Of a stretch of 39,447 nucleotides of DNA, positions 2,788 to 39,447 are shown piece after piece. The DNA is from Candidatus Spechtbacterales bacterium (lineage in GTDB: Bacteria > Patescibacteriota > Minisyncoccia > Spechtbacterales > 2-12-FULL-38-22). The DNA lies in NCBI GenBank assembly GCA_040900345.1, contig JBBDZE010000033.1, forward strand, positions 25,309-64,755. The letters run 5' to 3'. The notes under the pieces were generated by a model, which saw only the letters and a program-made list of their open reading frames with translations, searched no databases and was not told the DNA's origin. How positions within the stretch are numbered: position 1 is the stretch's first letter; each line of letters begins with the position of its first letter. The translations under genes were made by a program, and so were the position numbers.

Positions 2788-3151
2788 AGCGTTCCTCCTT
2801 GGCTTCTGATTCTTCGTGGACTCTCCGAAAGACCGCGAGTATCTCGCGTCCTCCCGGGACGTATCGACGACCCTGAATGGGGATCGTCATGGGTCAGATG
2901 ATTGTTTCCTGACATCAAATTAACCCCCTTTCCGGGGACTAACTCAAACACACAAACAAATTGTGTAGAGTACTATTGAAAACTTCGGCAAAATCCATTC
3001 CCTCGAGTGAGAGACGCAATTTGTACCGACTAGGTATTCTACGTCTAATCCGTAGAACTGTCAAGGGGGGGCGCCACTATTGGGACATGGTCGAATTTTT
3101 CCCCTCTTGTGATACTAGTAGTATCAAGAATGTCCCTATTTTGCAACTAAA

Positions 3152-3297: not shown

Positions 3298-3353
3298 CTT
3301 TCTCTTTTATCCCTTATCTCCACGGCCGTGGAGATAAGGGATAAAAGAGAAAG
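3298..3353. repeat. 56-bp perfect palindrome
   Basis: ctttctcttttatcccttatctccacgg (3298-3325) is followed directly by its exact reverse complement ccgtggagataagggataaaagagaaag (3326-3353), with no spacer. Confidence 0.9.
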
Positions 3354-3385
3354 CTACGTTACCTATTTTAAAATGCCTCATACCA

Positions 3386-3423
3386 CCTCAAAAACACCTC
3401 ATCTATGTGAGGTGTTTTTGAGG
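3386..3423 (-). terminator. Hairpin downstream of the IMPase-family gene, putative terminator
   Basis: cctcaaaaacacctca (3386-3401), 6-nt loop, tgaggtgtttttgagg (3408-3423). 16-bp perfect stem with T/A runs, 27 nt past the stop at 3450. Confidence 0.5.
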
Positions 3424-3449
3424 AACGACTCAAACCGGTGAAGCGTTTT

Positions 3450-4229
3450 TTACGTGTAGAGCTTCTTGGTTATGGCCACGATGTCGTTATGCACGACCCC
3501 ATTTGAAGCCAGAAAGTACCCATTGCCAAACTCCCAGGGGTTTCCGGACAAATCGGACACTCTCCCGCCCGCCTCCTGAACCAATAGGACACCCGCGGCA
3601 TAATCCCAGGTGGACAACCCAAGACAGACAAATCCCTCCGTGCCGCCGCGTGCAACATATGCAAGCTCTAAAGCACAGCAACCGAACACGCGAGCACTTT
3701 TTGCGCTACGGGACAATTCAGCACGCAATACCTCGCTTGGTTCGCGATCTTCGGGTTTTCGCGAGCGTCCATAGGTAACCATTCCCTCGGATGCCCGTTG
3801 GGAGGAGACATGCAGGGGGATGCCATCGTTCCAAAACGCACCCTGGCCTTTTTCTGCATAAAATAAGGAAGGAATAACGGGATTATATACCACGCCGGCG
3901 ATAAGCTCGCCATCCTTTTCGAGTCCTACTGAAACGGCGAACAGGGGGATGCTATTGGCAAAATTGCTCGTCCCATCGATGGGGTCCACGTGCCAGCGAT
4001 AGGGTTGGCTTCCGACTACTTCCCCGCCCTCCTCTCCGGCGATACTAAAATCGGGCGTATGCTTTTTGAGCACTTCAATGATAGCTCTTTCGCTCTCCTC
4101 GTCAGCCCGGGTCACAATACTCGTATCGTCCTTCTCGCGCTTTACCAGCGCGGTCTCAAAATAGTGCTCGGCAACGACTCCTCCAGCCTTGGCTGCCTCA
4201 ATAGCGATGGTTGCGTATTCCATGGTCAT
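3450..4229 (-). CDS. suhB: Inositol monophosphatase family protein (SuhB-like)
   Basis: IMPase signatures WHVDPIDGTSNF and WDYAAG. 259 aa. ATGA start/stop overlap with the upstream murC. Confidence 0.85.
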   Translation of the reverse strand: MTMEYATIAIEAAKAGGVVAEHYFETALVKREKDDTSIVTRADEESERAIIEVLKKHTPDFSIAGEEGGEVVGSQPYRWHVDPIDGTSNFANSIPLFAVSVGLEKDGELIAGVVYNPVIPSLFYAEKGQGAFWNDGIPLHVSSQRASEGMVTYGRSRKPEDREPSEVLRAELSRSAKSARVFGCCALELAYVARGGTEGFVCLGLSTWDYAAGVLLVQEAGGRVSDLSGNPWEFGNGYFLASNGVVHNDIVAITKKLYT

Positions 4230-5434
4230 TGCGCAAGAGCTTGTACTATTTGCCAGGAATCCCCCGCTCCCACGGAAAAGAGTACTCTGTCGCCGGAAAG
4301 ATTTTTCTTATAATACCGTATGGCCTCTTCGTTGGTGGCAAAGTATTCGGCCCTAAGCGTGGCGGCAAGCTTTTTACCAAGCTCGTCTTTTCCCTGCTCG
4401 CGAGCCGAGCTGTACGTCTTTAAAATAGCGACGCGATCAACTTTCGCCAGTTCCTTCACAAAATCGTCAAACAATCCTTTCGTACGGCTAAATGTATGGG
4501 GCTGAAACACCATACAGACCTCTTTGTTCGGAAACTTCTCTCGAATGCCCGAAAGGAGCGCAGCAATCTCGGTTGGATGGTGCGCGTAATCGTCGTAGAG
4601 CTCGGCCCCGTTGTACACACCATAGTGCTCAAATCGGCGCGCCAGACCTTTAAAATTGACAAGCGCCTCGTGGATGGTCTCGTCGTTTACGCCAAGTTTG
4701 CGCGCCGCCGCCGCGGCCAGGTTGGCATTCTTTTGGTTGTGTTGGCCCGGTAGCGCCAACGCAAAGTGTTCCAGTGTATCGGGAACACGAATAAGCAGGT
4801 CGCGTTCTACCCGGTCAGTGAAGATCTTAAATGACATCATGTAGGAATCCCTCGTAGGGAAATAGTCGGGGTGGTCGTAATCCACGCTCGTAAGCAGTAT
4901 CATCTCGGGATCGTAGCGCAGAAAAGCATCGCGATATTCGTCGGCTTCCAGCACAAAGTACTGCGAAGCACCGACGCGAGCGTTGCTCCCCCACTCGTTC
5001 ACGCGACTGCCGACCACCACAGTCGGGTCAAACCCCGCCCGCTCCAAAATAACCCCTAACATAGCCGTCGTGGTACTTTTGCCGTGGGTTCCCGCCACCG
5101 CAATGCCCCGCATGGCGTTAAACAGCTCGGCCAAGCCATCGTGCCAGGTAATGACAGGTATGGCCCGCTTCTGCGCGACGATAATCTCCGGATTGTCGGT
5201 ATTGATGTAGGCAGGGGAGGTTACCACGATATCTACCTGTTCGGGCACGTTGTGGGCGTCAAAGCCCTCTACAAAAGGAATATCAAGATGCCGCAAAACC
5301 TCGTCCGTAAAAAAGACCTCGTGAGTGTCCGAGCCGGACACGGCGATGGCGCGGTCGCGTAAAAGCTGCGCAAACGCCGTCATTCCCACTCCTTTGATGC
5401 CAACAAAATAGGCACTTTTGATATTCTCTATCAT
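4226..5434 (-). CDS. murC: UDP-N-acetylmuramate--L-alanine ligase (Mur ligase family)
   Basis: N-terminal GIKGVGMTAFAQLL nucleotide-binding motif and the Mur ligase P-loop AGTHGKSTTTAML. I chose the ATG at 5434 (MIENIK...), which overlaps the upstream stop as TAATG. The ORF track starts at a TTG at 5446. Confidence 0.8.
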   Translation of the reverse strand: MIENIKSAYFVGIKGVGMTAFAQLLRDRAIAVSGSDTHEVFFTDEVLRHLDIPFVEGFDAHNVPEQVDIVVTSPAYINTDNPEIIVAQKRAIPVITWHDGLAELFNAMRGIAVAGTHGKSTTTAMLGVILERAGFDPTVVVGSRVNEWGSNARVGASQYFVLEADEYRDAFLRYDPEMILLTSVDYDHPDYFPTRDSYMMSFKIFTDRVERDLLIRVPDTLEHFALALPGQHNQKNANLAAAAARKLGVNDETIHEALVNFKGLARRFEHYGVYNGAELYDDYAHHPTEIAALLSGIREKFPNKEVCMVFQPHTFSRTKGLFDDFVKELAKVDRVAILKTYSSAREQGKDELGKKLAATLRAEYFATNEEAIRYYKKNLSGDRVLFSVGAGDSWQIVQALAQ

Positions 5435-5778
5435 TACGGCGTACAATTACCTGCCAAGGTGTAGCCAGCCTCTTGGGCTTCCTGGGGGGAGGCGAACCAG
5501 ACCTGATTGTCTTCTTTGATGCTCGAAGCGCCCGAACAATATTCAAAATGATACTTGTCAGAGTTGATGCTCCCGACCACGCGGCCGGTACGTTCTGCGA
5601 CATTCACCTCTTGCGCTTCGTTACTTTTTGCGGTAGAATATAGCTCGGATGTGAGGCGTTCGACCACGATGGGCGACTTCTCGACATGAGCCACCGATGC
5701 GGCAACAAAACCCAGCGCGAAAATACCTACCGCGCTGCACGCAAGAATAAGCGCCGTGTACCGTTGGCCCGAAATCAT
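5434..5778 (-). CDS. Membrane-anchored protein with C-terminal Ada-like/sunset-type metal-binding domain
   Basis: N-terminal hydrophobic helix (YTALILACSAVGIFALGFVAA). C-terminal KYHFEYCSGASSIKEDNQVWFASPQEAQEAGYTLAGNC matches the YH..C....I...N..F.S..EA..AGY....C pattern. ATG at 5778; GTG alternative at 5787. Confidence 0.55.
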   Translation of the reverse strand: MISGQRYTALILACSAVGIFALGFVAASVAHVEKSPIVVERLTSELYSTAKSNEAQEVNVAERTGRVVGSINSDKYHFEYCSGASSIKEDNQVWFASPQEAQEAGYTLAGNCTP

Positions 5779-5817
5779 ATGCTTCACGTTTTCTAGTATC
5801 TCCCTTATTATACTATT

Positions 5818-6090
5818 ATGTCAAAGACAAAAGCAGCAGGAACAAGTAAGCTCGGAAGAGATTCTATCTCTAAGCGCCTCGGCGTGAAGCTTTTTGGCGG
5901 GCAGAAGGTATCGGCTGGTAACATTATTCTTCGCCAGCGCGGTACGCGCTTTCTTCCCGGCAAGAACGTCCGTCTGGCCGCCGACGACACCATCTACGCC
6001 CAGCGAAGCGGTATGGTGAAATTTCGCACCATTCGCAAAAGAAATTTCGATGGCCGCCAGCGCCGTGCCAAAATAATCGACGTTTTCTAA
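5818..6090 (+). CDS. rpmA: 50S ribosomal protein L27
   Basis: [45 protein letters not shown] is a canonical L27 sequence. 90 aa. Confidence 0.95.
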
Positions 6091-6110
6091 CCCCCCACCC
6101 TCCAGCAATC

Positions 6111-6138
6111 AAAAGGCCGCCCACATGGGCGGCCTTTT
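6111..6138 (+). terminator. Intrinsic terminator after rpmA
   Basis: aaaaggccgccca / tgggcggcctttt form a GC-rich stem. It is followed by a T run and lies 21 nt after the rpmA stop. Confidence 0.8.
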
Positions 6139-6160
6139 GATTTATAGAAATGGTGGGTGG

Positions 6161-6190
6161 TAGGCCTCGGCGACGTGTCGCCGAGGCCTA
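6161..6190. repeat. 30-bp GC-rich palindrome/hairpin
   Basis: taggcctcggcgac gt gtcgccgaggccta: 14-bp perfect arms. Sits between convergent rpmA and the 159-aa ORF. Confidence 0.7.
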
Positions 6191-6306
6191 CGCAAATGGC
6201 GTTTCCATCGCTACCTCTTCGGCCTAACCGCTCGAGATGCCTCAGAAAGCAGCGGGGAAACTATGCGTAGCGGCATTCGTGTAGATTGCGGACGAGCTCC
6301 TGCGTC

Positions 6307-6786
6307 CTAGCTGATCTGCGTTCCAATGTCCCGTAACGCCCTCTCTATGTCCAACGAAGGGCCTCCCCCTTCGCCCGGAAGAGCCACTACCTGCTTGCTT
6401 TCGCGCAGGGCCGGGCCTTCTGGGGGTACTCTGGCACGCACCCAAAGCTTCGTGGTCATATCCTCGCTTGCGTACGAGAATACGATGCCAACATCTGATC
6501 CAAGGGGGCAAAAAACCCCTACCAGCAGTTCTTCGGTCTTTCTCGCAGCATCGGCGAGCGAGAAGGTCCGGTCCGACTCGTTCTCTTCAGGGCGCTCTCC
6601 CTTGTTGCGGAGGACGCTGACGAAGTACTCCGCCAAGCTTTCCCCGCACCAACGGCCCTGGAAGAGATCACCCTCCTCGCTCTTGACCTCAAAGAAATTG
6701 CGGCGAAGATGTACCGTGAAGCGTATGGGCTGCCCGCGAGCTGCTCGACGCAATCCGCGGAACAGCACCCAGATGTACTCATTCAA
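6307..6786 (-). CDS. Hypothetical protein (159 aa), GC-rich orphan downstream of pyrG
   Basis: Protein-like composition, whereas the antisense ORF 6326-6925 is S/R/P-rich. The only start is a TTG at 6786 and no clear SD is visible. No motif recognised. Confidence 0.4.
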   Translation of the reverse strand: MNEYIWVLFRGLRRAARGQPIRFTVHLRRNFFEVKSEEGDLFQGRWCGESLAEYFVSVLRNKGERPEENESDRTFSLADAARKTEELLVGVFCPLGSDVGIVFSYASEDMTTKLWVRARVPPEGPALRESKQVVALPGEGGGPSLDIERALRDIGTQIS

Positions 6787-6888
6787 TAAACACCATACCG
6801 TTCTTTCTGGCCGCCACGCCGGAACTGCCTATATTAAACCAAATATCATCAGAAAATCAAGCTGGCGCATTTTAAAAACGTTCTCTCT

Positions 6889-12537: not shown

Positions 12538-14132
12538 ACCGAGGTTCGTTTAAAATCATGTTGGTGCAGCCCGGCGAACGTGCCCAGCACGAGCATAAAA
12601 GCCAGCAAGGCGCGTTCATCAAAGAGTGCCGCGTCCGTCATGCTGTAGCCGGCAATCCATGCCAAAGAAAACAGGGCGGTGGCCGCATAGAGGGCGTAGA
12701 GTGAGCGCCCATTGCGCCGCATAATTACTATTGCGCTCCGCACCACCCCACCCGCAATGCCGAGAAACGCAATAAATCCAACAAGGCCGACGGTGCTGGC
12801 AATGTGCAGATACAAGTTGTGTGCGCTTGCGCCCATGCGCGAAGCGGAAATGCTCTCACTGAGGACAATGGGATAGTTGCCAATGCCCACACCCCACACG
12901 GGCGTACGTTCAATGGATTCTATGGTAGTGCGCCAAATGTACACTCGCCCCTGGTTGGACGTCTCTGAAAAATCAATCAGCGAACGGATGCGTGAAAACC
13001 CCGCGTTGGAAGCTGCATCGGTCTCCTGAAACTGTGGAAAGGTTACAACCGCTTGATAGACTGGAAACATCAAAACAAAAAGGAGCGCCACCAAGGAAAG
13101 AAGTCCTGCCAAGCGATGCGCACGGCCCCAAAAGGCAATCAGCGGCAGCGCACACAGGGCCGCGACAACGCTTATCCATATCCCGCGTGTACCCGTCAGT
13201 ATGAGCGCCAGCAACATCACGGCAAGGCCGGCCGTGGCTAAGCCGACCCGCCAGTGCAAAAGAAGTGTTCGTACCGGCATGCGTCGCGGAGCCTCCACGA
13301 ACTGCCGCAAGCGCGGCATAGCTACGGCTCCCGCCACCAAAAGCGCCGGGAGAGCCATGAGCACATACATAGGAAAGGAATGGGAGTCTGGAAAGAGCGA
13401 GAACATGCGAAGGCGCAACGTGTCGCCCGAGTAGCTAAACCACGTATTACCAAAATCGAGCACGATATTGGCCCACTCTTGCCCGTACAAATTACGGCTC
13501 ACAATACTCCCCCACCAGTGGTGAAAACGCCACGCTGGAACAAAGTAGGCGGCCAAAAACTGGATGAATCCAAAGATTACAACCACCGCAGCTGAAAAGG
13601 CAAAATTTTTGGAAAGCGAAATAAGGTATGAGCGTCGCTCGGCAATGAGCCATCGCACGACAATAAACAAAAGTGCGGCGTTGCCTAAGTATATCAATCG
13701 CTTTATCCCGGCTGTCGTATCGGGAGCGACATAGAGCGATAGTGCGGCAATAATGAAATACACGATGCCAAATGTTTCCATCCAGTTAGTACGCATCCAA
13801 TGGAAAAGCTCGGTTCGGTTGCGCAGAGGTTTCACTATTTTGCGCCAGCGTCCTTGCGCTAGCACGAGCCGCACCGCCAAGATAATGATGAGGGCCCGCC
13901 ACATGTTGAAGTTGTCAAACGTTTCCGCAAGCGGCAAAGCGATGAAAAGCGGAATCGCCCGCACGAACAACTCCGTCCCGCGGGTCACGGGAGCTACCAG
14001 CATATAGCCGCCGTATAAGCCAAAAACGGCGAACGCAAGCACGCGCGGCAAAAAATCAAACGCGATGAGTATCGTCAGGGCGAAAGCAAGCGCAAAAACG
14101 ATGTTTTGTTGCGTAATGTAGGCTCTATTCAT
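12534..14132 (-). CDS. O-antigen ligase/polymerase-like (Wzy_C-type) polytopic membrane protein
   Basis: At least 10 hydrophobic helices. GTRGIW and SAHNLYLHIASTVGLVGF segments are typical of the O-antigen ligase family. 532 aa. Confidence 0.8.
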   Translation of the reverse strand: MNRAYITQQNIVFALAFALTILIAFDFLPRVLAFAVFGLYGGYMLVAPVTRGTELFVRAIPLFIALPLAETFDNFNMWRALIIILAVRLVLAQGRWRKIVKPLRNRTELFHWMRTNWMETFGIVYFIIAALSLYVAPDTTAGIKRLIYLGNAALLFIVVRWLIAERRSYLISLSKNFAFSAAVVVIFGFIQFLAAYFVPAWRFHHWWGSIVSRNLYGQEWANIVLDFGNTWFSYSGDTLRLRMFSLFPDSHSFPMYVLMALPALLVAGAVAMPRLRQFVEAPRRMPVRTLLLHWRVGLATAGLAVMLLALILTGTRGIWISVVAALCALPLIAFWGRAHRLAGLLSLVALLFVLMFPVYQAVVTFPQFQETDAASNAGFSRIRSLIDFSETSNQGRVYIWRTTIESIERTPVWGVGIGNYPIVLSESISASRMGASAHNLYLHIASTVGLVGFIAFLGIAGGVVRSAIVIMRRNGRSLYALYAATALFSLAWIAGYSMTDAALFDERALLAFMLVLGTFAGLHQHDFKRTSV

Positions 14133-23925: not shown

Positions 23926-25029
23926 TTATTCCTCCTTGGCGACATGGACGGTTCTTGTCGGGAAAGCGACCATAATGCCTTCACGGTTGAGCGCCTCGTT
24001 AAGATTGAGAAGTACCTCCTGGTTGATGTCCATATATTCGGCATAGTCGCCAGACCTCACATAGTAGACATTCTCAAACTCCAACGCCGAATCGCCAAAC
24101 ACCTTGAAGTGCGAGCGGTCAAACCGGGTATTGTTTGCGCTCTCAACGGTACTACGGACCAAGTCCGGTATACGCCGCAGCTTCTCCTGCGGCGTGGCGT
24201 ATTCAACCCCCAGCGCAAAGCGCACCCGCCGTTGTTCCATGCGCCCATAGTTTTGCACCCGTGCATCCGTCAGCTGGGCGTTGGGCAGTATTATTTCCTC
24301 GCCCTCCAGTGATTGAATACGCGTCGTTTTGAGGCCGATGCGCTGCACCGTGCCGCTCGTTTCGCCCACAACAATAAAATCACCCGGCTCGAACGGTTTG
24401 TCAAAAGCAATGGAAAAGGAACTGAACAAGTCGGAAAGAATGTTTTGGGCGGCCAGGGCAATGGCAATGCCGCCAATGCCCAGCCCGGCGATGATAGATG
24501 TTACGTTCAGTCCGAAGTTTTGCAGTACGAACAAAATGCCGAGCACCCACAAACTCCACTTCGCCACACTCTGAAGCGTTTGCAATGCGGAGCTGCTGTC
24601 AGGGCACTCCCCCGTTCTTTGTGGAACCACCGAGTGGAAAAGGTAATCGATGAAAATGCCAAGCGCCGTAATAACCTGCTACGTAATGGCAACGATGACG
24701 AGCGCGTTCAAGACCACTTCAGCGATATCGGGCAGCTCAATACTGCGCACGGCAATGTAGAAGGCTAAAAAGGTGACCAAAGGGGGCTTCACGGAGTCGG
24801 CAATGCGTACCAGGGTGTCATCGACATCCGTGTCCGTGCGCTTGGCCAGGGCCTGAAAGCGCCCGAGCACTGTCTTTTGGATAAGATACAGTAGCGAAAA
24901 AGCCCCCAGAAAAATTATCAGGGCCGTAAGGTAATCGCCCGCATTTTGCACGACGGGTATACGCTCTTCCACGAAGAGAGAAAATCGATTCGGCACCTCC
25001 AATAGCTTCCGTAGGTTTGAAAAATTCAT
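23926..25029 (-). pseudogene. Mechanosensitive ion channel (MscS family) interrupted by one in-frame TAG at 24679-24681
   Basis: The 116-aa N-terminal TM fragment (24679-25029) and the 234-aa C-terminal fragment (23926-24630) are in the same frame. The latter carries the MscS core GLGIGGIAIALAAQNILSDLFS and a beta domain. The 48 nt between them translate to a sensible TM continuation, QVITALGIFIDYLFHS. Confidence 0.8.
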
Positions 25030-25070
25030 ACGTTGCTATGTTTTCATCCTAGGGGTTTTGGCAAAATAAC

Positions 25071-25107
25071 GCAACATAAAACCCGCTCAAGGCGGGTTCT
25101 ATGTTGC
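25071..25107 (-). terminator. Hairpin after the RRM-protein gene
   Basis: gcaacata a aacccgc tcaag gcgggtt c tatgttgc. On the minus strand it is followed by GTTATTTTGC. Confidence 0.6.
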
Positions 25108-25125
25108 GACCGGACAACGTGCGTA

Positions 25126-25398
25126 TTACGCAGCGTTGCGGTCGTCGCGCTCCATGGGACGGGCTTCGTTGACGGTCAACGTACGACCTTCAAACTCTTT
25201 GCCATTCCACATGTCGATTGCGGCTTGCGTCTCTTCTTCCGTTGCCATCTCCACAAAGCCGAAGCCCTTGGAGCGACCCGTCATGCGGTCGGTAATGATA
25301 GCTACTGAGCTAACCGTACCGGCCTGCGCAAACGCATTCGTAAGCTCTTGTTCGGTTGTTGCGTAAGGCAAGCCACCGACAAATAATCGCTTATTCAT
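25126..25398 (-). CDS. RRM-type RNA-binding protein
   Basis: RNP-2 LFVGGL and RNP-1 KGFGFVEM motifs. 90 aa. Confidence 0.92.
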   Translation of the reverse strand: MNKRLFVGGLPYATTEQELTNAFAQAGTVSSVAIITDRMTGRSKGFGFVEMATEEETQAAIDMWNGKEFEGRTLTVNEARPMERDDRNAA

Positions 25399-25533
25399 GT
25401 GCTCTAAATTTCTTTATAACTTCCTTCGAACGTAAGCGACACTGCACTCGCTACACAAACTACTCACGCACACGCGGTTATGCCTTACGTAGAAGATACC
25501 AACACTGTACCACAGTGTTGGAAAATTGCAAGA

Positions 25534-25562
25534 GATATAGGACATTTTTCCCTCTTTGTCAA
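25534..25562 (-). promoter_or_regulatory. Sigma70-like promoter for the RRM-protein gene
   Basis: On the minus strand: TTGACA (25562-25557), 17-nt spacer, TATATC (25539-25534). This implies a leader of about 125 nt that contains the hairpin caacactg tacca cagtgttg (25500-25520). Confidence 0.45.
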
Positions 25563-25585
25563 GTTTTTTCGACACAGCCCGACCA

Positions 25586-31722: not shown

Positions 31723-32163
31723 TTATTGTTTTGCGGTTCCATAGAAAAGATTAATGCACTCATCGTTGCCTGATATCAAGTCAAGCTCCAGTGCGTCCTG
31801 TGCGCTCACCCAGCAGTAATCCTGGTGCTCATCGCTCAAGACAACGCGCGGCTTTTTGGGCAGCTGGACCTGGAACATGTGGAAAATAAAATCAAACTCC
31901 GGGTAGCGAACGTATGTTTTTTGAAAGTAGCCAATAACCTCAACCGGCACCGAAATTCCTGTTTCTTCCTGCAATTCCCTGGCTATTGCCGCCTGCAACG
32001 CCTCGCCCGGGTCAACTTTACCCCCTGGCATGCCCCATCGACTGCCCTGAAATACGCCATCTTTTCTGCGCAAAAAGAGTGCTTTTCCTTCGGCTTCCAA
32101 AAAACAACTTACGGCCTCAACCGTTGGGTTAAAATGTTTGGGAGGTTTTTGGTAGACACTCAT
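31723..32163 (-). CDS. NUDIX hydrolase
   Basis: Nudix box GGKVDPGEALQAAIARELQEETGI. I chose the ATG at 32163, which forms an ATGA overlap with the upstream gene. Confidence 0.88.
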   Translation of the reverse strand: MSVYQKPPKHFNPTVEAVSCFLEAEGKALFLRRKDGVFQGSRWGMPGGKVDPGEALQAAIARELQEETGISVPVEVIGYFQKTYVRYPEFDFIFHMFQVQLPKKPRVVLSDEHQDYCWVSAQDALELDLISGNDECINLFYGTAKQ

Positions 32164-32627
32164 AGGCCTTGTGCTTCCATCCAATCGTGCGGCATGACTG
32201 ATGCAATGCCCAAACGTTTGGCTTGTTCGTATTCCCACGAGGCGCCTTTAGACGTTTCCCAACCGGGAAGAAAATAAAACTTTGCAATATAGCCGGTTTC
32301 AAAAATGGGCAAAAAGAAATCGTCCAGCAAGCCCATCAGATAGCCGGTCTCAACACCCTTGCGTTTGATGTTTTGAACCGCATGCTCAAAGGGACGCTGG
32401 TCAAAGACGTTCTCCCTTCCTGCGATGAGCAACTCAATGGCCATGTCAAAAATGCGAAAATTATCCGCTACCGAGCCCATGCCCCCGGTAGAGATGGGGC
32501 CGCACACTTGCACCACCGGCTCGGGAATGCGCGGCAAAATCTGCATAGCAAGGGCCAGCATATCCTCGTAGCTGTCCATCGTCGCTACCTGCTCTAATTC
32601 TTCTTTGGTCCAATGGGGGTTAGGCAT
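32160..32627 (-). CDS. DUF4406-like (nucleoside 2-deoxyribosyltransferase-like fold) protein
   Basis: VCGPISTGG and LPGWETSKGASWEYEQAKRLGI resemble the AGP.TG ... LPGWE.S.GA..E...A..LG pattern. Family recalled from memory, not searched. Confidence 0.55.
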   Translation of the reverse strand: MPNPHWTKEELEQVATMDSYEDMLALAMQILPRIPEPVVQVCGPISTGGMGSVADNFRIFDMAIELLIAGRENVFDQRPFEHAVQNIKRKGVETGYLMGLLDDFFLPIFETGYIAKFYFLPGWETSKGASWEYEQAKRLGIASVMPHDWMEAQGL

Positions 32628-32664: not shown

Positions 32665-33153
32665 CTAAACTCCCTTACGTTGGTCCACCAAGCCACCCAG
32701 GTAGTTTGCTGTATAAATAATCTCATCGCCTTGCACGATCTGCTCTTCACCGGAATATTTCTCCAAATCACCCTCCCATGCATTCACGTAGGTAAAGCTA
32801 TCCTGTCGGTACTCTTTGGGGCCGCGAAAAGGAGCCTCCTGCGGCATTCGCATTAAAGCATTACGTAAAACCTCATACACGGGATTTGGGTCTGCGCTTT
32901 CATTCACCCATCCATAGTACACCATTATCCAGGAGGGTTTGCTATCGTAAAGCACAATTACTCTACCGCCGTAGGGCTCGCCGCCAAAAAAATTATCATG
33001 TGAGCGCCACAGACCCTTTTCGAACGGGATTGTGGTAGAACCATCGGGCTCTTTCACCCAGTCCTTTTCCTCTCCAGCGGCGTATCCCGCCTTGTTGCAG
33101 TCAACCAAGAATTGACGTAACTGTTCGATATCCATGGGCATGTCGTGATGCAT
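32665..33153 (-). CDS. DUF5680-like protein
   Basis: FL...NKAGYA...FFGGEPYGG...YYGWV...PFRGPKEY...YSGEEQI...YLGGLV resembles the DUF5680 pattern. Family recalled from memory, not searched. Confidence 0.5.
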   Translation of the reverse strand: MHHDMPMDIEQLRQFLVDCNKAGYAAGEEKDWVKEPDGSTTIPFEKGLWRSHDNFFGGEPYGGRVIVLYDSKPSWIMVYYGWVNESADPNPVYEVLRNALMRMPQEAPFRGPKEYRQDSFTYVNAWEGDLEKYSGEEQIVQGDEIIYTANYLGGLVDQRKGV

Positions 33154-34054
33154 TTTTATTTTTTATAGTGCTACTTAGTATGGATTCCGTGTGCTTTTTG
33201 ACCCACCGAGCAGCCTTCTTCTGTCCCGAATTCACAAAAAAGACAAACGACGAGAGTCCCAGAAATAACTGATAGCAGGCTATTCTTTCCTCGTAATTCT
33301 CAACAGCAATCCCCACTTTTTTATAATGAACTTTGAATTTTTCAGCATACTGAACGTCACGCGACCAAAAGTCTAACCACGCAATATCGAATAAAAAATC
33401 TCCATACTTCATTTCTCCCCAATCAATGACGCCCGTAATCTTTTTGCCATCCGCCAACACGTTATTGAATCCGTAATCTCCGTGCACTAAGGAGCGCTTT
33501 TCGGGACAGTAGCGCACTAGCGTTCTAATCTTTTCTTCCACTTCTTCAAAAAACTCTTTCTCTTGTCCTGTTTTGTTCTGTATGGATAGTATATAGGACC
33601 TCCAGGAGTCAGACATTCCTACTCCTCGCATATTCAGGTCCCCAGATCTCTTACCCTGGCTCGAAATCTTCGTGGAGTGAATGGCATCCAACGTTCTCAT
33701 AAGCTGGGGAAGAAGTTCATTGAGGTCCTTGGTATTGAAATCTTCCACAACCTTGCCCGCAACTCTTTCAGAAATTGAGAAAAACAATCGCTCATTCAGC
33801 CTCCCAATTTTGATTATCTTGGGAATGGGTACTGCATCCGAACGAAAGTGCCGATAGGCGTACACATCTTTCCGAAAAGTTCTCGCTGTGTTGTTTGCCC
33901 GAATTACATACTTTCCCTCACTTGTATCAAATGCAAAAGCTCGAGAGTATTCCCCTCCCCGCAACGGGTGTAGAGCTCGAATCGGTTCGGCATATTCTTC
34001 GCGCAAAAACGTTCTCACCTCTCCAATCGTGACACGTGTCTTTACCGTAGACAT
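33101..34054 (-). CDS. Aminoglycoside/small-molecule phosphotransferase (APH family kinase)
   Basis: Brenner motif LVHGDYGFNNVL and GVIDWGEMKYGD. I chose the ATG at 34054 (MSTVKTR). Confidence 0.85.
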   Translation of the reverse strand: MSTVKTRVTIGEVRTFLREEYAEPIRALHPLRGGEYSRAFAFDTSEGKYVIRANNTARTFRKDVYAYRHFRSDAVPIPKIIKIGRLNERLFFSISERVAGKVVEDFNTKDLNELLPQLMRTLDAIHSTKISSQGKRSGDLNMRGVGMSDSWRSYILSIQNKTGQEKEFFEEVEEKIRTLVRYCPEKRSLVHGDYGFNNVLADGKKITGVIDWGEMKYGDFLFDIAWLDFWSRDVQYAEKFKVHYKKVGIAVENYEERIACYQLFLGLSSFVFFVNSGQKKAARWVKKHTESILSSTIKNKNASRHAHGYRTVTSILG

Positions 34055-34085
34055 ATTTTTATCTTGCGATATTATCCATATATTT

Positions 34086-34544
34086 TCAAACGGGAGCTGA
34101 AACCACATACCCCAAGATATCAAACTGTGGGCCAAAAAATTCTACCATTTCGTAATCGGGTCGTTCAATAAGACGAAGATGTTCTGACGAGTTTAAATAC
34201 TTATTTTTAAAATCTTCATACTCGCCTGCGTCAAAGTCCACACAGCCAACCTGAGGGCGCTGGGGGTCGGGCTTGCGAACACGAATGCGCGGAATGCCGT
34301 CTATGGCCTCGTTCAATTTTACTTGCTGTCCGTTGTTGGCCTCAGAAACCTCCCCCAAGCTGGCAAGCATGGCTACCAGCCCATCATATTCTTCCTGGGA
34401 GTGGGCAAAAATTGTAAGGTAGGTAATGGGATAGCGCTGCCCCGTTACCTTTTCGGCCAATGTGGCAGCCTCCTTCGCCACATACTGCACGGCCGCAAAA
34501 AGCTCTTCGTGTGTTTTAATTGGGCTGAAGCGGTAAGAAGTCAT
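34086..34544 (-). CDS. Hypothetical protein (152 aa)
   Basis: ATG start. Tightly packed in the operon. No motif recognised. Confidence 0.6.
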   Translation of the reverse strand: MTSYRFSPIKTHEELFAAVQYVAKEAATLAEKVTGQRYPITYLTIFAHSQEEYDGLVAMLASLGEVSEANNGQQVKLNEAIDGIPRIRVRKPDPQRPQVGCVDFDAGEYEDFKNKYLNSSEHLRLIERPDYEMVEFFGPQFDILGYVVSAPV

Positions 34545-35662: not shown

Positions 35663-36181
35663 ATGACCGAAGGAGATTTTCTCGCCCCGTTGCTAAACCT
35701 TTCCCCGCTCGTGGTGGCTTCCGTCGCATGGGCGTGGGGGTTTGGTTCGCTTGTGGTCGTTGGTGTCAAGACCCAAACGTTTCGTCGCAACATACTAAAA
35801 AACCCCGCCGTGATGGTCGGGGATGTCCTGCTGTTGCCAGTAAGCGCCGGGCTTATCGTGCTCTTTTACCAATCAGTGCAGCAACCGCTTGCCGAGACAG
35901 CTGTGCCCGCATGGAGCATTGCAGGGGGAATCATTGCGTCGGTTATTACAGCTACTTTCGCCGTTCGTTTTCAGCTCCTCAACATATGGTGGTTGCCCCA
36001 TGGGCTCTTCTTTTTGTTTATGGCATACCTTGTTGTCGTCTTTAGCACAAAAGGCGCCTATCAACTGCTTTTGGGACCCTCCTCGCCCTCTCTTTGGCTG
36101 TTGTGGACATCACCTCTTCTTTTGATTGCATTACACCACCTCTTGGGAATGAGGTTTAAGAAACGCTTTCCAACCCCTTAA
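35663..36181 (+). CDS. Integral membrane protein (172 aa, about 5 TM), function unknown
   Basis: ATG start and hydrophobic helices throughout. Divergent from the VOC operon. Confidence 0.65.
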   Translation: MTEGDFLAPLLNLSPLVVASVAWAWGFGSLVVVGVKTQTFRRNILKNPAVMVGDVLLLPVSAGLIVLFYQSVQQPLAETAVPAWSIAGGIIASVITATFAVRFQLLNIWWLPHGLFFLFMAYLVVVFSTKGAYQLLLGPSSPSLWLLWTSPLLLIALHHLLGMRFKKRFPTP

Positions 36182-36190
36182 AAACAGAAC

Positions 36191-36239
36191 GCCGCCCAGA
36201 AGTCGAGCAGCGTCTGTTGTCTGCTGCCTCATGGGCGGC
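36191..36239 (+). terminator. Branched hairpin after the 172-aa membrane gene
   Basis: gccgccca (36191-36198) pairs with tgggcggc (36232-36239), and an inner gcagc/gctgc pairing adds to it. Followed by TTTG. Confidence 0.4.
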
Positions 36240-36302
36240 TTTGCGGTTCTCTCCTATTCTCCTGGGGGAGGAAGTGTCATGCCCTCGGGTTCGAAGACAA
36301 AC

Positions 36303-36343
36303 AGCCGCCAACAAATACAGCTAGGGGCTGTCTGTTGGCGGCT
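36303..36343 (-). terminator. Intrinsic terminator ending the three-gene orphan operon
   Basis: On the minus strand: agccgccaaca ... tgttggcggct, an 11-bp stem with an inner acagc/gctgt pairing, followed by GTTTGTCTT. Abuts the TAA of the 67-aa ORF. Confidence 0.6.
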
Positions 36344-36546
36344 TAGGCCCCGAGGGGCTCAAGAAAACCAATTCGTGGATCCGATGCGTGCCGGTCTCTG
36401 CCGGCAATATCCTCCCATTGCACCTGCGCGCGCCGTCGTGCCTGCTCTATTGCCGTGGAATCACCCAGGTCGAGTGCTGCTACACCTGTAATTCTTTTCC
36501 ACCCTATGGCAGCAGGAATTTCTGTTGCGTAGACAAGGTACCACAT
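36343..36546 (-). CDS. Hypothetical protein (67 aa), orphan island gene 4
   Basis: I chose the ATG at 36546 (MWYLVYATEI...), preceded by AAGGAG 8 nt upstream. The track's GTG start at 36564 is less likely. Confidence 0.55.
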   Translation of the reverse strand: MWYLVYATEIPAAIGWKRITGVAALDLGDSTAIEQARRRAQVQWEDIAGRDRHASDPRIGFLEPLGA

Positions 36547-36570
36547 CGCGACTTCTCCTTTCACGGGCGG

Positions 36571-37065
36571 CTAGGTGATGACTGGCTGCATCCAGTCAGG
36601 AACTTCTCGGAGGCGCTCGAACGCATCTTGGATGCGCACTGCAACCTCGGGACGCTGGCGCTTGAGGAGCTGGTAGACGGCTGCCTGGATGGGAACCTGC
36701 AGTCCCTTCGTAGCTGAAAAGAAGAACTCCTCGACCCAGGTGTCCGATTGGCCCAGGCTCAAGAGTTCGAACCCCTGGACATTGGCCACTAGCTCCACGA
36801 TGGTCGGGCCTGTTTCCTTGGGGAACTCGACGTCCAGCCACTCGGGCGGAATCTGCTCATACCGCCGCATGATCCTGCCAACGTTCTCGACAACCTCCTC
36901 AGGGTCGAGATGGCCAGCAATGTGGCAGGTAGAGAACTTCCGCCCATCGCTGCCGATTAGGCCGACCTCCCAGTGGGAACCACTGAGGGTCGCACCGACA
37001 ACGCGCATCTGGATTCGAAACGAGAACGTCCCCGCGGTGACGAGAATGCCCCACTGTTCGGACAT
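36571..37065 (-). CDS. Hypothetical protein (164 aa), orphan island gene 3
   Basis: ATG at 37065 preceded by GGGAGGGAGG. No TM helix, signal peptide or recognisable motif. Confidence 0.6.
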   Translation of the reverse strand: MSEQWGILVTAGTFSFRIQMRVVGATLSGSHWEVGLIGSDGRKFSTCHIAGHLDPEEVVENVGRIMRRYEQIPPEWLDVEFPKETGPTIVELVANVQGFELLSLGQSDTWVEEFFFSATKGLQVPIQAAVYQLLKRQRPEVAVRIQDAFERLREVPDWMQPVIT

Positions 37066-37108
37066 GCAAACCTCCCTCCCAGCCGTCCGCGTCGTAGCTC
37101 GGGTCCGC

Positions 37109-37468
37109 CTAGATCTTTAGGGCAGGAGATCCGCGGAAGCACGACGAGACGAACTCGTGGGTCACGTAGTACTGCCCGTCCATCTCCGCGAAGAGCGTCC
37201 GATTGCCCAGAAGCTCATCCAAATCCCGCTCTTGAAGGCGAGGATGTCTCTGGGACGGGTTCTCCTTGGCATGGAGGCCCCACAACTCGTCGCGAGTAAA
37301 CGGACTCCAGCCACCGCGTCGTTGCGCGAGGCGCACAACCCAGAATCCGGAAGATTCGAGCTCTGCACGTCCCAGGGTATCCATGAAATCTAGTTCGGTG
37401 CTGATATCGCTCGGCTGAATGGGGTACTCGACAACCTGGCCGACTACCTGGCGCTTTGAATCAGGCAT
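37109..37468 (-). CDS. Hypothetical protein (119 aa), orphan island gene 2
   Basis: ATG at 37468 preceded by AGAGG. No recognisable motif. Confidence 0.6.
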   Translation of the reverse strand: MPDSKRQVVGQVVEYPIQPSDISTELDFMDTLGRAELESSGFWVVRLAQRRGGWSPFTRDELWGLHAKENPSQRHPRLQERDLDELLGNRTLFAEMDGQYYVTHEFVSSCFRGSPALKI

Positions 37469-37503
37469 GTAGCATACCTCTGCTAATCCCTAGTTTCGCC
37501 CAA

Positions 37504-37529
37504 ACAGTACCACTCGCGAGCGGTACTGT
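37504..37529. promoter_or_regulatory. 26-bp near-perfect palindrome upstream of the three-gene orphan operon
   Basis: acagtacc a ctcgcgag c ggtactgt. 36 nt upstream of the ATG at 37468, immediately downstream of the preceding terminator. Confidence 0.4.
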
Positions 37530-37546
37530 CAATGTCAAAAACAGAA

Positions 37547-37592
37547 AAGCCTCGCACAGAGCGGCCGTGGTCGGCTTTTCTGTGCGAGGCTT
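37547..37592 (-). terminator. Intrinsic terminator after the 149-aa orphan gene
   Basis: On the minus strand: aagcctcgcacaga, 18-nt loop, tctgtgcgaggctt, then TTCTGTTTTT. Starts 34 nt after the stop at 37627. Confidence 0.7.
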
Positions 37593-37626
37593 GGAGGAAG
37601 ACGAGGGGTTTCCCCAGGCAACGCGG

Positions 37627-38076
37627 CTAGATGCAGGAAATGACATAAGCGCCCTTTGGCCATTCGCCCCAATGGCCAGCAACCGCCATATTCCATCGCT
37701 TGCTTCCGGAGCCCCAGGCGAAATTAACAACCTGGAGCTGGCCGTCGTGGTCACGGATGTAGGCGATGTTGACGCCATTAGTCCTTAATGGCCCCGACTC
37801 TCCGCGGGCTTGCCCCTTCAGTAGCTCGAAGAGGTGCGCCAGAAAGATTGCGGCTCGATCGCCCAGATCAGCCAGAATGGGGGCATTCGTTGCTTCCCCC
37901 TCTAGACGATATATAGCGAGAGTTGCCCTCCCTCTATTCTCTTCCCCCTTGTCGAGAAAGAAGCGAGGGAAGTCCTCACCGTGAACGCGTACATTTGCCG
38001 CCTCTAACTGTTCTCGGGCAACGAATCGCTCCACCTGTTCCACTTGGACAGTGTGCATTAAAGAGATTAAAACCAT
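37627..38076 (-). CDS. Hypothetical protein (149 aa), orphan island gene 1 (monocistronic)
   Basis: ATG at 38076 preceded by GGGAGA. Upstream promoter-like element and its own terminator. No recognisable motif. Confidence 0.6.
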   Translation of the reverse strand: MVLISLMHTVQVEQVERFVAREQLEAANVRVHGEDFPRFFLDKGEENRGRATLAIYRLEGEATNAPILADLGDRAAIFLAHLFELLKGQARGESGPLRTNGVNIAYIRDHDGQLQVVNFAWGSGSKRWNMAVAGHWGEWPKGAYVISCI

Positions 38077-38126
38077 CGCAATCTCCCGTATCGGATTTGC
38101 ACTTTGCCTTTTTCAAAAACATCAAC

Positions 38127-38155
38127 ACACTACCACTGAATTGTTAGTGTGTCAA
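38127..38155 (-). promoter_or_regulatory. Sigma70-like promoter for the 149-aa orphan gene
   Basis: On the minus strand: TTGACA (38155-38150), 17-nt spacer, TAGTGT (38132-38127). Embedded in the inverted repeat acacacta/tagtgtgt. Confidence 0.45.
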
Positions 38156-38404
38156 GAGTTCTATTTCTTTCTGCTTCTTTCCAAGCACATCCTCCAACGC
38201 CTCTTTTAATTCGGGATGTTTGAAGGTACGGGGCTGCTTGTTTCTGATACGTTAATCAGATTTCCCGAAGGCAATAGATAACAAGAACCGCGTTCAAGAA
38301 CAGCCCCACGACAAGGGCTAAAAGGTTGGGGCCACTTGATTGTAGCACTGCGCCTAGAAGATAACTTTCGCTACGCTCGGATTAGTCCTTCAACTAGTTC
38401 AGGA

Positions 38405-39447
38405 CTAGTAGCTTAACGTACCGCTCGCTACAGGAGAACTTGAATCAACCCACTTTATTGGGTCGACCAGTTCCCCATCTCGCCACCATACATCCCCTTC
38501 GGTAACATTACCCATACTATCTGATGAGCCAAGATCCATGGTCATGGCAAGCGTCTTGCTTACCGCCGTGATCAAGGTGGTCGTGTCAGCAACCAAGGTC
38601 AGCGTCTTACCCGTGGTGGGAATCGTGAACTGGCTCGTCGGAATGAAGGTTACCGAACCGGCAAACGTCGTACCAGAGTAGTAACCTGTGGCAACAGTAG
38701 TAGCGCCGTCTTTCAAAAATAGTGCCGCACCATCTTGCAACCCGCCATTTGAGGCAAGGGCGATTGTTATTTTATCAATTTCTACCGAAGCCTGGCTGGC
38801 AGCGTCAAAGTCCAATGACAGAATAGTCTGGTTGGAACTTCGCGTTGCCGTGCCCGACGGAGATGCGCTGTTCAACGCAACGCTCAAGGTCGTCTTGTGG
38901 ATGGTCTGAGCGTTGAAGTTGCTGGCCGTCTCGGGAGTCAGTGTACCTGCAAAAGAGGTTACTATTGAGCCAGAGGTTGCGCCCTTCGCTTCAATATCAG
39001 AATCAACCAAGTTTGCAGCACCAGTTACATCCGCGACATGGAAAGTTGGGCTCTCGCCCGCCGTAGCACCCGTTGAGGTACCGTTCAGGTCGGCCTTGAT
39101 GGTTAGGGTCAAGGAACTGTTCTTGGGTACTACCACGGAACCGGCCGTAAAGCCAAAGTCCATGGTTACGTCACCGCCGGCGTTGGTGCCGGTAGGTGCC
39201 AACGGGCCGCTTACACGCGTGCTGCCCAAGTAGAGGGAAACGCCCGCAAAGCCGGGCACTTCATCGGTGGTCGTGCCGCCGGTTGCCTGTGCAAGCGTCA
39301 GCTTCAGACGGGTAAGCTGAATATCTTCAGCCGTTGCCGTGAGCTTTATCGAACCCCACTCAACACCCGTAGCGCCGGCAGTGGTGCCAACGGCTACCTG
39401 GCCGGTTGTTACGGTTGACGGGTCAACAGAGACCGTCAGCGTACCGG
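38405..39447 (-). CDS. Thr/Ser/Gly/Ala-rich beta-rich surface protein, C-terminal part (ORF runs off the window)
   Basis: The frame stays open from 39445 down to the TAG at 38405; the track's M at 39259 is an internal GTG. Two similar modules of about 140 aa are visible (…KLTLAQATGG…VSLYLGSTRV…TLTIKADL and …KITIALASNGG…ALFLKDGATTV…TLTLVADT). Confidence 0.75.
   Translation of the reverse strand, partial: GTLTVSVDPSTVTTGQVAVGTTAGATGVEWGSIKLTATAEDIQLTRLKLTLAQATGGTTTDEVPGFAGVSLYLGSTRVSGPLAPTGTNAGGDVTMDFGFTAGSVVVPKNSSLTLTIKADLNGTSTGATAGESPTFHVADVTGAANLVDSDIEAKGATSGSIVTSFAGTLTPETASNFNAQTIHKTTLSVALNSASPSGTATRSSNQTILSLDFDAASQASVEIDKITIALASNGGLQDGAALFLKDGATTVATGYYSGTTFAGSVTFIPTSQFTIPTTGKTLTLVADTTTLITAVSKTLAMTMDLGSSDSMGNVTEGDVWWRDGELVDPIKWVDSSSPVASGTLSY

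Follow-up and report, generated by a model that had tools for sequence, protein, structure and literature searches.

A run of four small minus-strand genes on a contig of Candidatus Spechtbacterales bacterium (assembly GCA_040900345.1, contig JBBDZE010000033.1) raises the question of whether a tidy arrangement of promoters, terminators and orphan proteins amounts to a functional system. The genes occupy positions 36343-38076 of a 39,447-nucleotide (nt) stretch of this contig, referred to below as the window, and together with their control elements form what we call the island. A preliminary description of this DNA had proposed a horizontally acquired cassette that combines a regulator or sensor with effectors. 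Our analysis leans, by a modest balance of the evidence, toward a plainer answer: these are four real, lineage-restricted accessory genes that accreted in a sparsely sampled genome, and not a conserved four-gene machine. Relatives are detectable for two of the four proteins, those of 164 and 149 amino acids (aa), and each set of relatives belongs to other organisms and gene contexts, where the remaining three genes are missing. On this reading, the island genes would have arrived or arisen piecemeal beside a large surface-protein-like gene.

Are the four open reading frames (ORFs) genes at all? The ORFs of 149, 119, 164 and 67 aa that the preliminary description listed are all present, each with an ATG start and a normally spaced Shine-Dalgarno (SD) site upstream of it. 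The 149-aa gene (P149, 37627-38076) follows the SD sequence GGGAGA and encodes a soluble protein with an isoelectric point (pI) of 6.2. The 119-aa gene (P119, 37109-37468), preceded by AGAGG, encodes a soluble protein of pI 5.3. The 164-aa gene (P164, 36571-37065), preceded by GGGAGGGAGG, encodes a soluble protein of pI 5.0 and has the highest G+C content at third codon positions (GC3) of the island, 0.75. The 67-aa gene (P67, 36343-36546) has the SD sequence AAGGAG, low GC3 and the weakest coding signal; starting at an upstream GTG, which has no SD site, would extend it to 73 aa. All four products are small, soluble and acidic (pI 5.0-6.2), and their 19-residue mean Kyte-Doolittle hydropathy peaks at 1.17, which bears out the earlier statement that none contains a transmembrane helix. 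There is no paralogy among the four proteins, or between them and other genes of the window.

Under a host codon model trained on 35 other ORFs of the window, the annotated frame ranks first of six for each of the four. The scores, in bits per codon, are 0.13 (149 aa), 0.19 (119 aa), 0.29 (164 aa) and 0.075 (67 aa); the background is 0.229 ± 0.08. Each ORF also outscores its own dinucleotide shuffles (z = 4.4, 4.3, 6.6 and 2.7 in the same order). Best-of-six frames, the excess over shuffles and the SD/ATG pairs therefore mark all four ORFs, judged on intrinsic evidence, as real genes, with the least certainty for the 67-aa ORF. We hold it highly improbable that the region is partly non-coding, with the 67-aa and possibly the 119-aa ORF arising by chance in a G+C-rich leader or trailer of the 164-aa gene. 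Several 100-140-aa ORFs do occur in other frames of the region, and the 67-aa ORF has no homolog, low GC3 and a codon score about 1.9 standard deviations below background, but the frame ranking, the shuffle comparisons and the well-spaced SD and ATG of both ORFs argue for coding. The operon terminator, moreover, abuts the stop codon of the 67-aa gene and not that of the 164-aa gene.

The 164-aa protein provides the clearest view of how one of these genes behaves elsewhere. An exhaustive HMMER search of 1.84 billion representative sequences recovered only two relatives, P0010 (159 aa, 34% identity, E = 1e-11) and P0011 (160 aa, 31% identity, E = 5e-7). The family is thus very rare, comprising three sequences that include a member from a Patescibacteria metagenome-assembled genome (MAG). 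P164, P0010 and P0011 align over their full length with 26 invariant columns, among which are hydrophobic and charged positions. Since no Cys, His, Ser or Asp is invariant, the conservation pattern weakly favors a binding role over catalysis. An AlphaFold model built from the three-sequence alignment (pLDDT 76, pTM 0.72) predicts an N-terminal sheet of four strands and, after it, five helices; Foldseek finds nothing credible for it in the PDB (best E = 0.14) or BFVD (best E = 0.005), with template-modeling scores of at most 0.35. A Hypoth_Ymh (PF09509) assignment considered for P0010 was rejected, as the match scores 13.7 bits against a gathering cut-off of 25 (E = 0.06) and the 164-aa protein itself shows no match.

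The genomic settings of the two relatives differ from that of the island. P0010, annotated as “Patescibacteria group bacterium”, is encoded on MAG contig JADFRF010000058.1 (L003) between NUDIX genes, one of whose products is 48% identical to the NUDIX protein of the window (31723-32238). Taken by themselves, this homolog and the NUDIX match point with medium confidence to a Patescibacteria/CPR origin of the window. When the P0010 and P0011 contigs are searched by tblastn with all four island proteins, only the 164-aa family is found, and no resemblance to the 67- or 119-aa protein is seen in the 70-aa ORF that lies downstream of P0010 or in the ABC-transporter gene located upstream of P0011. 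Both relatives have a TTGACA promoter-like site of their own. A 12-pair terminator hairpin follows the P0010 gene, and the P0011 gene (on L006) has at least the promoter-like site. P0010 also stands out as a sharp G+C island, with a GC content of 0.533 and GC3 of 0.625 compared to 0.37-0.44 and about 0.35 in its neighbors, on a contig of 42% G+C. These stand-alone relatives, their own promoter-like sites and the G+C island at P0010 suggest that the 164-aa family is carried as a self-expressed cassette of one gene and has been transferred horizontally. The 164-aa gene of the window may have traveled in the same manner, as a single-gene unit resembling the morons of phages.

The P0010 contig additionally contains a dispersed intergenic repeat of about 40-110 nt, with six copies in 5 kb (1507-1615, 2350-2388, 2721-2814, 3343-3436, 3929-4037 and 4728-4836). 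In at least three copies, a small hairpin and its T run are accompanied by a −35-like box and by an extended −10 of the form TGGTA, and the repeat may be a recurring promoter/terminator module.

The 149-aa protein has a relative in a different phylum. Searching plasmids by tblastn, we identified a match (E = 3e-8) to a hypothetical protein of 224 aa that four conjugative plasmids of Bradyrhizobium encode. One such protein, WP_280978587.1 from Bradyrhizobium sp. ISRA443, is 34% identical to the 149-aa protein over residues 14-145 (pairwise E = 4e-16) and shares the blocks LLxxQAxGESGxLxTN and NIxxxRD. In addition, its hydrophobic N-terminus is signal-peptide-like and its C-terminus is extended, and it has no match in Pfam, NCBIfam, PADLOC or PHROG. 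The 224-aa gene starts 4 nt past a gene for an NYN-domain nuclease, whose product matches the PADLOC “LabA-like NYN nuclease” model, and the pair (L088, NZ_CP094524.1, 7221-8483) is situated between a traM/traR-type region and a Dabb-family gene. The window, unlike the plasmid, contains no NYN nuclease gene. Two structural leads on the 149-aa protein were discarded. A PKD domain in its C-terminal half was suggested by a weak PDB sequence match to 6aem (E = 0.006); Pfam PKD gives no match at E ≤ 1, and the similarity is lost with a two-sequence profile. A single-sequence AlphaFold prediction (pLDDT 44) is unusable.

Searches with all four proteins return little else. A single PHROG match, at chance level, is all that Pfam, PADLOC, PHROGs and NCBIfam return at E ≤ 1, and the earlier remark that the proteins lack any recognizable motif thus extends to Pfam, NCBIfam and PADLOC profiles at this threshold. 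No family of known anti-phage defense (PADLOC-DB 2.0) matches the four proteins, P0011 or P0012 at E ≤ 1, and the PADLOC match of P0010 to BovA is at chance level (E = 0.035). Among phage and plasmid sequences, the Bradyrhizobium hits of the 149-aa protein are the only tblastn match for the four proteins; INPHARED phage genomes yield none, and IMG/VR contains no credible match for any of them. An IMG/VR match to the 67-aa protein proved spurious, covering 22 residues of an ORF that is out of frame and runs antisense to a 664-aa gene, and PDB sequence matches for the 119- and 67-aa proteins are likewise at chance level. A word-index search of 5.8 billion proteins matched the 164-, 149- and 119-aa proteins to themselves only. 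This search overlooked WP_280978587.1, a member of the searched collection and a true homolog of the 149-aa protein, and its negatives are therefore weak, including that for the 119-aa protein. For the latter, word-index, PDB sequence, phage/plasmid tblastn and IMG/VR searches, all of limited sensitivity, detect no relative. For the 67-aa protein, domain libraries, PDB, IMG/VR and phage/plasmid tblastn detect none, the large protein databases not being covered.

The island products would more likely be binding or inhibitor-type proteins, immunity-like or anti-defense-like, than enzymes. For the 164-aa protein, the invariant positions of its family point that way; for the 149-, 119- and 67-aa proteins, small size and the lack of a known domain are what make such a role the more likely one.

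The arrangement of control elements in the preliminary description is borne out. On the minus strand, the 149-aa gene forms a monocistronic unit and the 119-, 164- and 67-aa genes form an operon with intergenic gaps of 43 and 24 nt. The promoter-like site of the 149-aa gene (38125-38155) contains the TTGACA-N17-TAGTGT element reported earlier (38127-38155) together with an extended −10 TGG. Its intrinsic terminator (37537-37592) consists of the hairpin at 37547-37592, with 21-nt arms that are 86% complementary, followed by TTCTGTTTTT, with an intergenic-fold z of −5.35, in agreement with the clean terminator that had been described. The operon promoter-like site (37504-37532, TTGACA-N17-TACTGT, extended −10 TGG) begins immediately past this terminator. 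The second terminator that the description placed at the end of the operon is also present (36294-36342), with a hairpin at about 36304-36342 directly after the 67-aa stop codon and a T-rich tail, TGTTTGTCTT (z = −5.56). Both units share the same design, in which 17 nt separate a consensus −35 from an extended −10 (TGnTAnTGT) and transcription would end at a hairpin terminator. A further G+C-rich hairpin at 36188-36214 (strand not set), flanked on either side by T runs, occupies the convergent junction with the gene for a 172-aa membrane protein and marks the cluster boundary.

The pattern TTGACA-N16-18-TAnnnT occurs at three sites in the whole 39-kb window, a count reached by none of 100 shuffles. 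A generic sigma-70 scan calls no promoter at either island site, since both −10 hexamers, which belong to the extended type, match TATAAT at only three of six positions. The island thus contains two insulated transcription units with predicted promoter-like sites.

Does the palindrome in front of the operon reveal a dedicated regulator? The 26-nt sequence ACAGTACCaCTCGCGAGcGGTACTGT (37504-37529) is real, symmetric at 24 of 26 positions, and lies not simply between the two units, as first described, but inside the operon promoter, spanning the promoter-like site from the end of the −35 through the −10. It could form an RNA or DNA hairpin of 12 pairs, and its perfect 8-bp arms (ACAGTACC/GGTACTGT) are rare in spacer shuffles (p = 0.002). 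A perfect inverted repeat of 8 bp is also present at the promoter-like site of the 149-aa gene (ACACACTA at 38145-38152 and TAGTGTGT at 38125-38132; p = 0.005, spacer shuffle). The third consensus site of the window (3036-3064, minus strand), upstream of an unrelated 909-aa gene, has the arms TTCTACG/CGTAGAA. A perfect 7-8-bp inverted repeat is hence found at each of the window's three consensus promoter-like sites, with a spacer-shuffle p of 0.002-0.005 in every case. The geometry is constant: the left arm, complementary to the −10 region, abuts the −35, and the extended −10 is overlapped by the right arm.

The same dyad arrangement recurs upstream of P0010 (L003, about 1574-1603; CAATACCA/TGGTATTG, p = 0.0008) and at a metagenome locus (L015, about 13596-13626, minus strand) before a gene for a 108-aa hypothetical protein. 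Spacer-shuffle p values for the repeats at these and the window sites are about 0.001-0.005. Across about 750 kb comprising the window and the fetched loci, arms of at least 7 bp are present in 4 of 43 promoter-like sites compared to 0.68 expected. Three of these four are in the window, so that the dyad is found at 3/3 window sites versus 1/40 sites of other loci. The arm sequences vary between sites, and the arms are therefore not the targets of one island-encoded regulator. Because similar dyads are present at all three consensus promoters of the window, that of the 909-aa gene included, the palindrome cannot be regarded as an operator specific to the island. These observations suggest that the dyad is a lineage-wide promoter or hairpin feature instead of a cluster-specific operator. 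Its position over the core promoter of the operon would probably lower or gate transcription, either through binding of a dimeric repressor or through formation of a hairpin or cruciform.

Both the operon and its promoter bear on whether the four genes form one regulated module of the toxin-antitoxin (TA), anti-phage defense or anti-CRISPR (acr/aca) type, in which one product would bind the palindromic promoters and the remaining ones would serve as effectors. Co-transcription of the trio with short gaps from a single promoter to a single terminator fits such a module, as does a 26-nt palindrome placed exactly on the core promoter, in the manner of autoregulated TA and acr operons, and the 149-aa promoter also has a dyad. 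Immunity and anti-defense genes typically encode small acidic orphan proteins, and the sole homolog of the 149-aa protein adjoins the gene for an NYN nuclease that matches a PADLOC model. We nevertheless consider the module improbable. The four proteins have no PADLOC, Pfam or NCBIfam match, no helix-turn-helix (HTH), ribbon-helix-helix (RHH) or AbrB domain was found in them, and none is basic. The half-sites of the two island dyads differ (ACAGTACC vs ACACACTA), and a dyad of the same kind precedes a third, unrelated gene. Homologs of the 164- and 149-aa proteins, finally, occur without the partner genes. The regulator/sensor-plus-effector system of the preliminary description is accordingly unsupported: the proteins yield no DNA-binding, sensor, toxin or defense domain, and the relatives that can be traced lack the partners. 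A bolder variant, in which the operon, alone or together with the 149-aa gene, would be a new Patescibacteria-specific regulated conflict module (immunity, anti-defense or TA-like), gated by dyad “hairpin” promoters that mark self-expressed, horizontally moving cassettes, strikes us as quite improbable.

Composition addresses a different question, namely whether the genes entered together, separately or not at all. The GC content of the island, 0.571, exceeds the mean of equal-sized windows (0.536 ± 0.031), and 10% of those windows are equally G+C-rich; the label of a GC-rich island is thus correct in direction, but the excess is mild and uneven. The dinucleotide distance of the island is matched by 8% of equal-sized windows and its tetranucleotide distance by 13%. 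GC3 z-scores are −0.06 (149 aa), +1.59 (119 aa), +2.83 (164 aa) and −2.03 (67 aa), and within the island the departure is significant for the 164-aa gene only. This wide spread indicates that the four genes are not one compositional unit. No tRNA gene is present in the window, no direct repeats flank the island beyond short chance matches, and no integrase or transposase domain is found among the called neighbor genes on one side of it. The proposal of horizontal acquisition therefore survives in part. Transfer is plausible for at least the 164-aa gene, given its GC3 z of +2.8 and the G+C island at P0010, but a single acquired cassette finds no support, given heterogeneous GC3, host-like codon usage and a composition within the range of the window, and the signs of mobility that a cassette might have left (tRNA, flanking repeats, or integrase/transposase domains on the side surveyed) are lacking.

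Much of this evidence would also suit ordinary, vertically inherited, lineage-specific genes that have always been chromosomal, their GC3 differences reflecting expression level, amino-acid usage or short-gene noise. Codon usage is host-like in three of the genes (0.13-0.29 vs 0.229 ± 0.08; 0.075 for the 67-aa gene), overall GC, di- and tetranucleotide values fall inside the window distribution, and tRNA genes, flanking repeats and mobility domains among the called neighbors are missing. The proximity of P0010 to a related NUDIX gene even hints at an old common neighborhood. Set against this are the GC3 of the 164-aa gene (z = +2.8), the striking GC3 island that P0010 forms in a 42% G+C contig, which is hard to explain without transfer, and the location of the sole known relative of the 149-aa protein on an alphaproteobacterial plasmid. 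We regard purely vertical inheritance as unlikely, though a serious contender, and continue to prefer piecemeal accretion of accessory genes.

The window also holds other compositional outliers. The strongest is the 909-aa ORF (58-2787, minus strand), with a GC content of 0.63, a GC3 of 0.72 and a dinucleotide distance of about 155 compared to a mean of 66; positions 1-2800 are far more deviant than the island. This ORF has only a sub-threshold CarboxypepD_reg match and lies about 250 nt downstream of its consensus dyad promoter-like site. At the other extreme, the lowest-GC deviation is shown by an APH/fructosamine-kinase-like gene (33101-34135, minus strand) that is separated from the island by only 2 kb (GC 0.43 and GC3 0.45 vs about 0.54 and 0.60 for the window) and may be another foreign gene.

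The neighborhood of the island is cellular in character. Within a 12-kb stretch around it, 12 of the 23 genes that lie wholly inside have no Pfam match, and the neighbors are cellular genes. The flanks had been labeled a housekeeping-type membrane gene and a surface-protein gene; neither label could be substantiated, as Pfam returns no match for the membrane gene (35663-36181) or for the putative surface-protein gene (38405-39447). The latter ORF (minus strand) is rich in Thr, Ser, Gly and Ala and runs past the end of the window. An independent Logan assembly from the same sample is identical to the window across 11,994 nt and ends inside this ORF, at 38564. Decayed gene fragments had also been reported at 38100-38400. 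This segment shows no similarity by blastn or tblastx against the window and fetched loci, has no Rfam match and folds weakly (z = −1.9), leaving the claim without support. Rfam finds no match anywhere in the window, the island included. Two further intervals have no assigned gene and no Rfam match, 5447-6888 (1.4 kb), where the only ORFs, of 159 and 199 aa, overlap each other on opposite strands, and 24631-25585 (0.95 kb).

Every window protein checked, including CTP synthase (pyrG), is the sole member of its 90%-identity cluster apart from copies from the same genome, which indicates that the lineage is barely sampled. No sister genome was found by genome-contig scans with the 164-aa family alignment and the S51 peptidase gene, or by a first metagenome scan. 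A metagenome scan with MsrA yielded 80 loci, none of them syntenic, and the best relatives are at most 71% identical and lack the flanking genes of the island. Patescibacteria have one of the highest ratios of unknown to known genes, and most of their lineage-specific unknown clusters are confined to the species level (PMC9132574).

Several considerations weigh against piecemeal accretion. The common orientation of the 119-, 164- and 67-aa genes, their gaps of 43 and 24 nt and their single promoter and terminator imply co-transcription, which usually reflects a shared function. The 119- and 67-aa proteins were searched with limited sensitivity, the 67-aa protein never against the large protein databases, and because these searches are shallow, hidden homologs and a conserved co-occurrence are possible. 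The word-index negatives carry little weight after the Bradyrhizobium homolog was missed. The families themselves are tiny samples, with three distinct sequences for the 164-aa and two for the 149-aa protein, and a binding or inhibitor-type function is putative.

If four accessory genes did accrete in this way, the finding is an ordinary one. It adds four entries to the very large pool of lineage-restricted unknown genes of the candidate phyla radiation (CPR), and it illustrates that a tidy promoter/terminator layout does not turn orphan genes into a “system”. Modest value would attach to two by-products. The first is a tiny new family, the 164-aa protein and its two relatives, which appears to move horizontally as a self-expressed, cassette-like unit in Patescibacteria. 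The second is the recurrent dyad-symmetric consensus promoter, in which an arm at the −35 is complementary to the extended −10 region; should it hold genome-wide, it would bear on the control of transcription in a phylum where almost nothing is known of it.

Among known systems, genomic islands differ from this cluster, which has no tRNA target, flanking repeat or mobility domain (one side checked). Type II TA and acr-aca operons resemble it in their small, tightly spaced genes, in a promoter-like site overlapped by an inverted repeat, and in small, acidic, fast-evolving products. Unlike in these operons, however, no island protein matches a toxin, antitoxin, Acr or Aca family, and no HTH, RHH or AbrB DNA-binding domain was found. 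Because unrelated promoters of the window carry the same kind of dyad, the palindrome does not discriminate in favor of a TA module. The partner genes are also not conserved together as those of type II TA modules are, in a sample of two 164-aa relatives.

Phage morons, which are independent promoter-gene-terminator units that spread horizontally (PMC3594210), share features with it. The 149-aa gene, the window operon and P0010 each combine a promoter-like site with a terminator, and P0010 differs clearly in G+C content from its surroundings in the MAG contig; in the window the 164-aa gene stands out in GC3, and the island as a whole lies within the range of the window. The island departs from the moron pattern in that it lacks a prophage context and any significant PHROG or credible IMG/VR or INPHARED match, and in that the 164-aa gene of the window is embedded in a three-gene operon. 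A further comparison is with the lineage-restricted unknown genes of Patescibacteria cataloged with AGNOSTOS (PMC9132574). The 149-aa protein departs from these through its cross-phylum relative, whose location on a Bradyrhizobium plasmid means that this protein is not strictly lineage-specific. In other respects the island resembles them, encoding small proteins that have no Pfam domain and occur in one or few genomes, in a genome where about half of the neighboring genes likewise lack a Pfam match.

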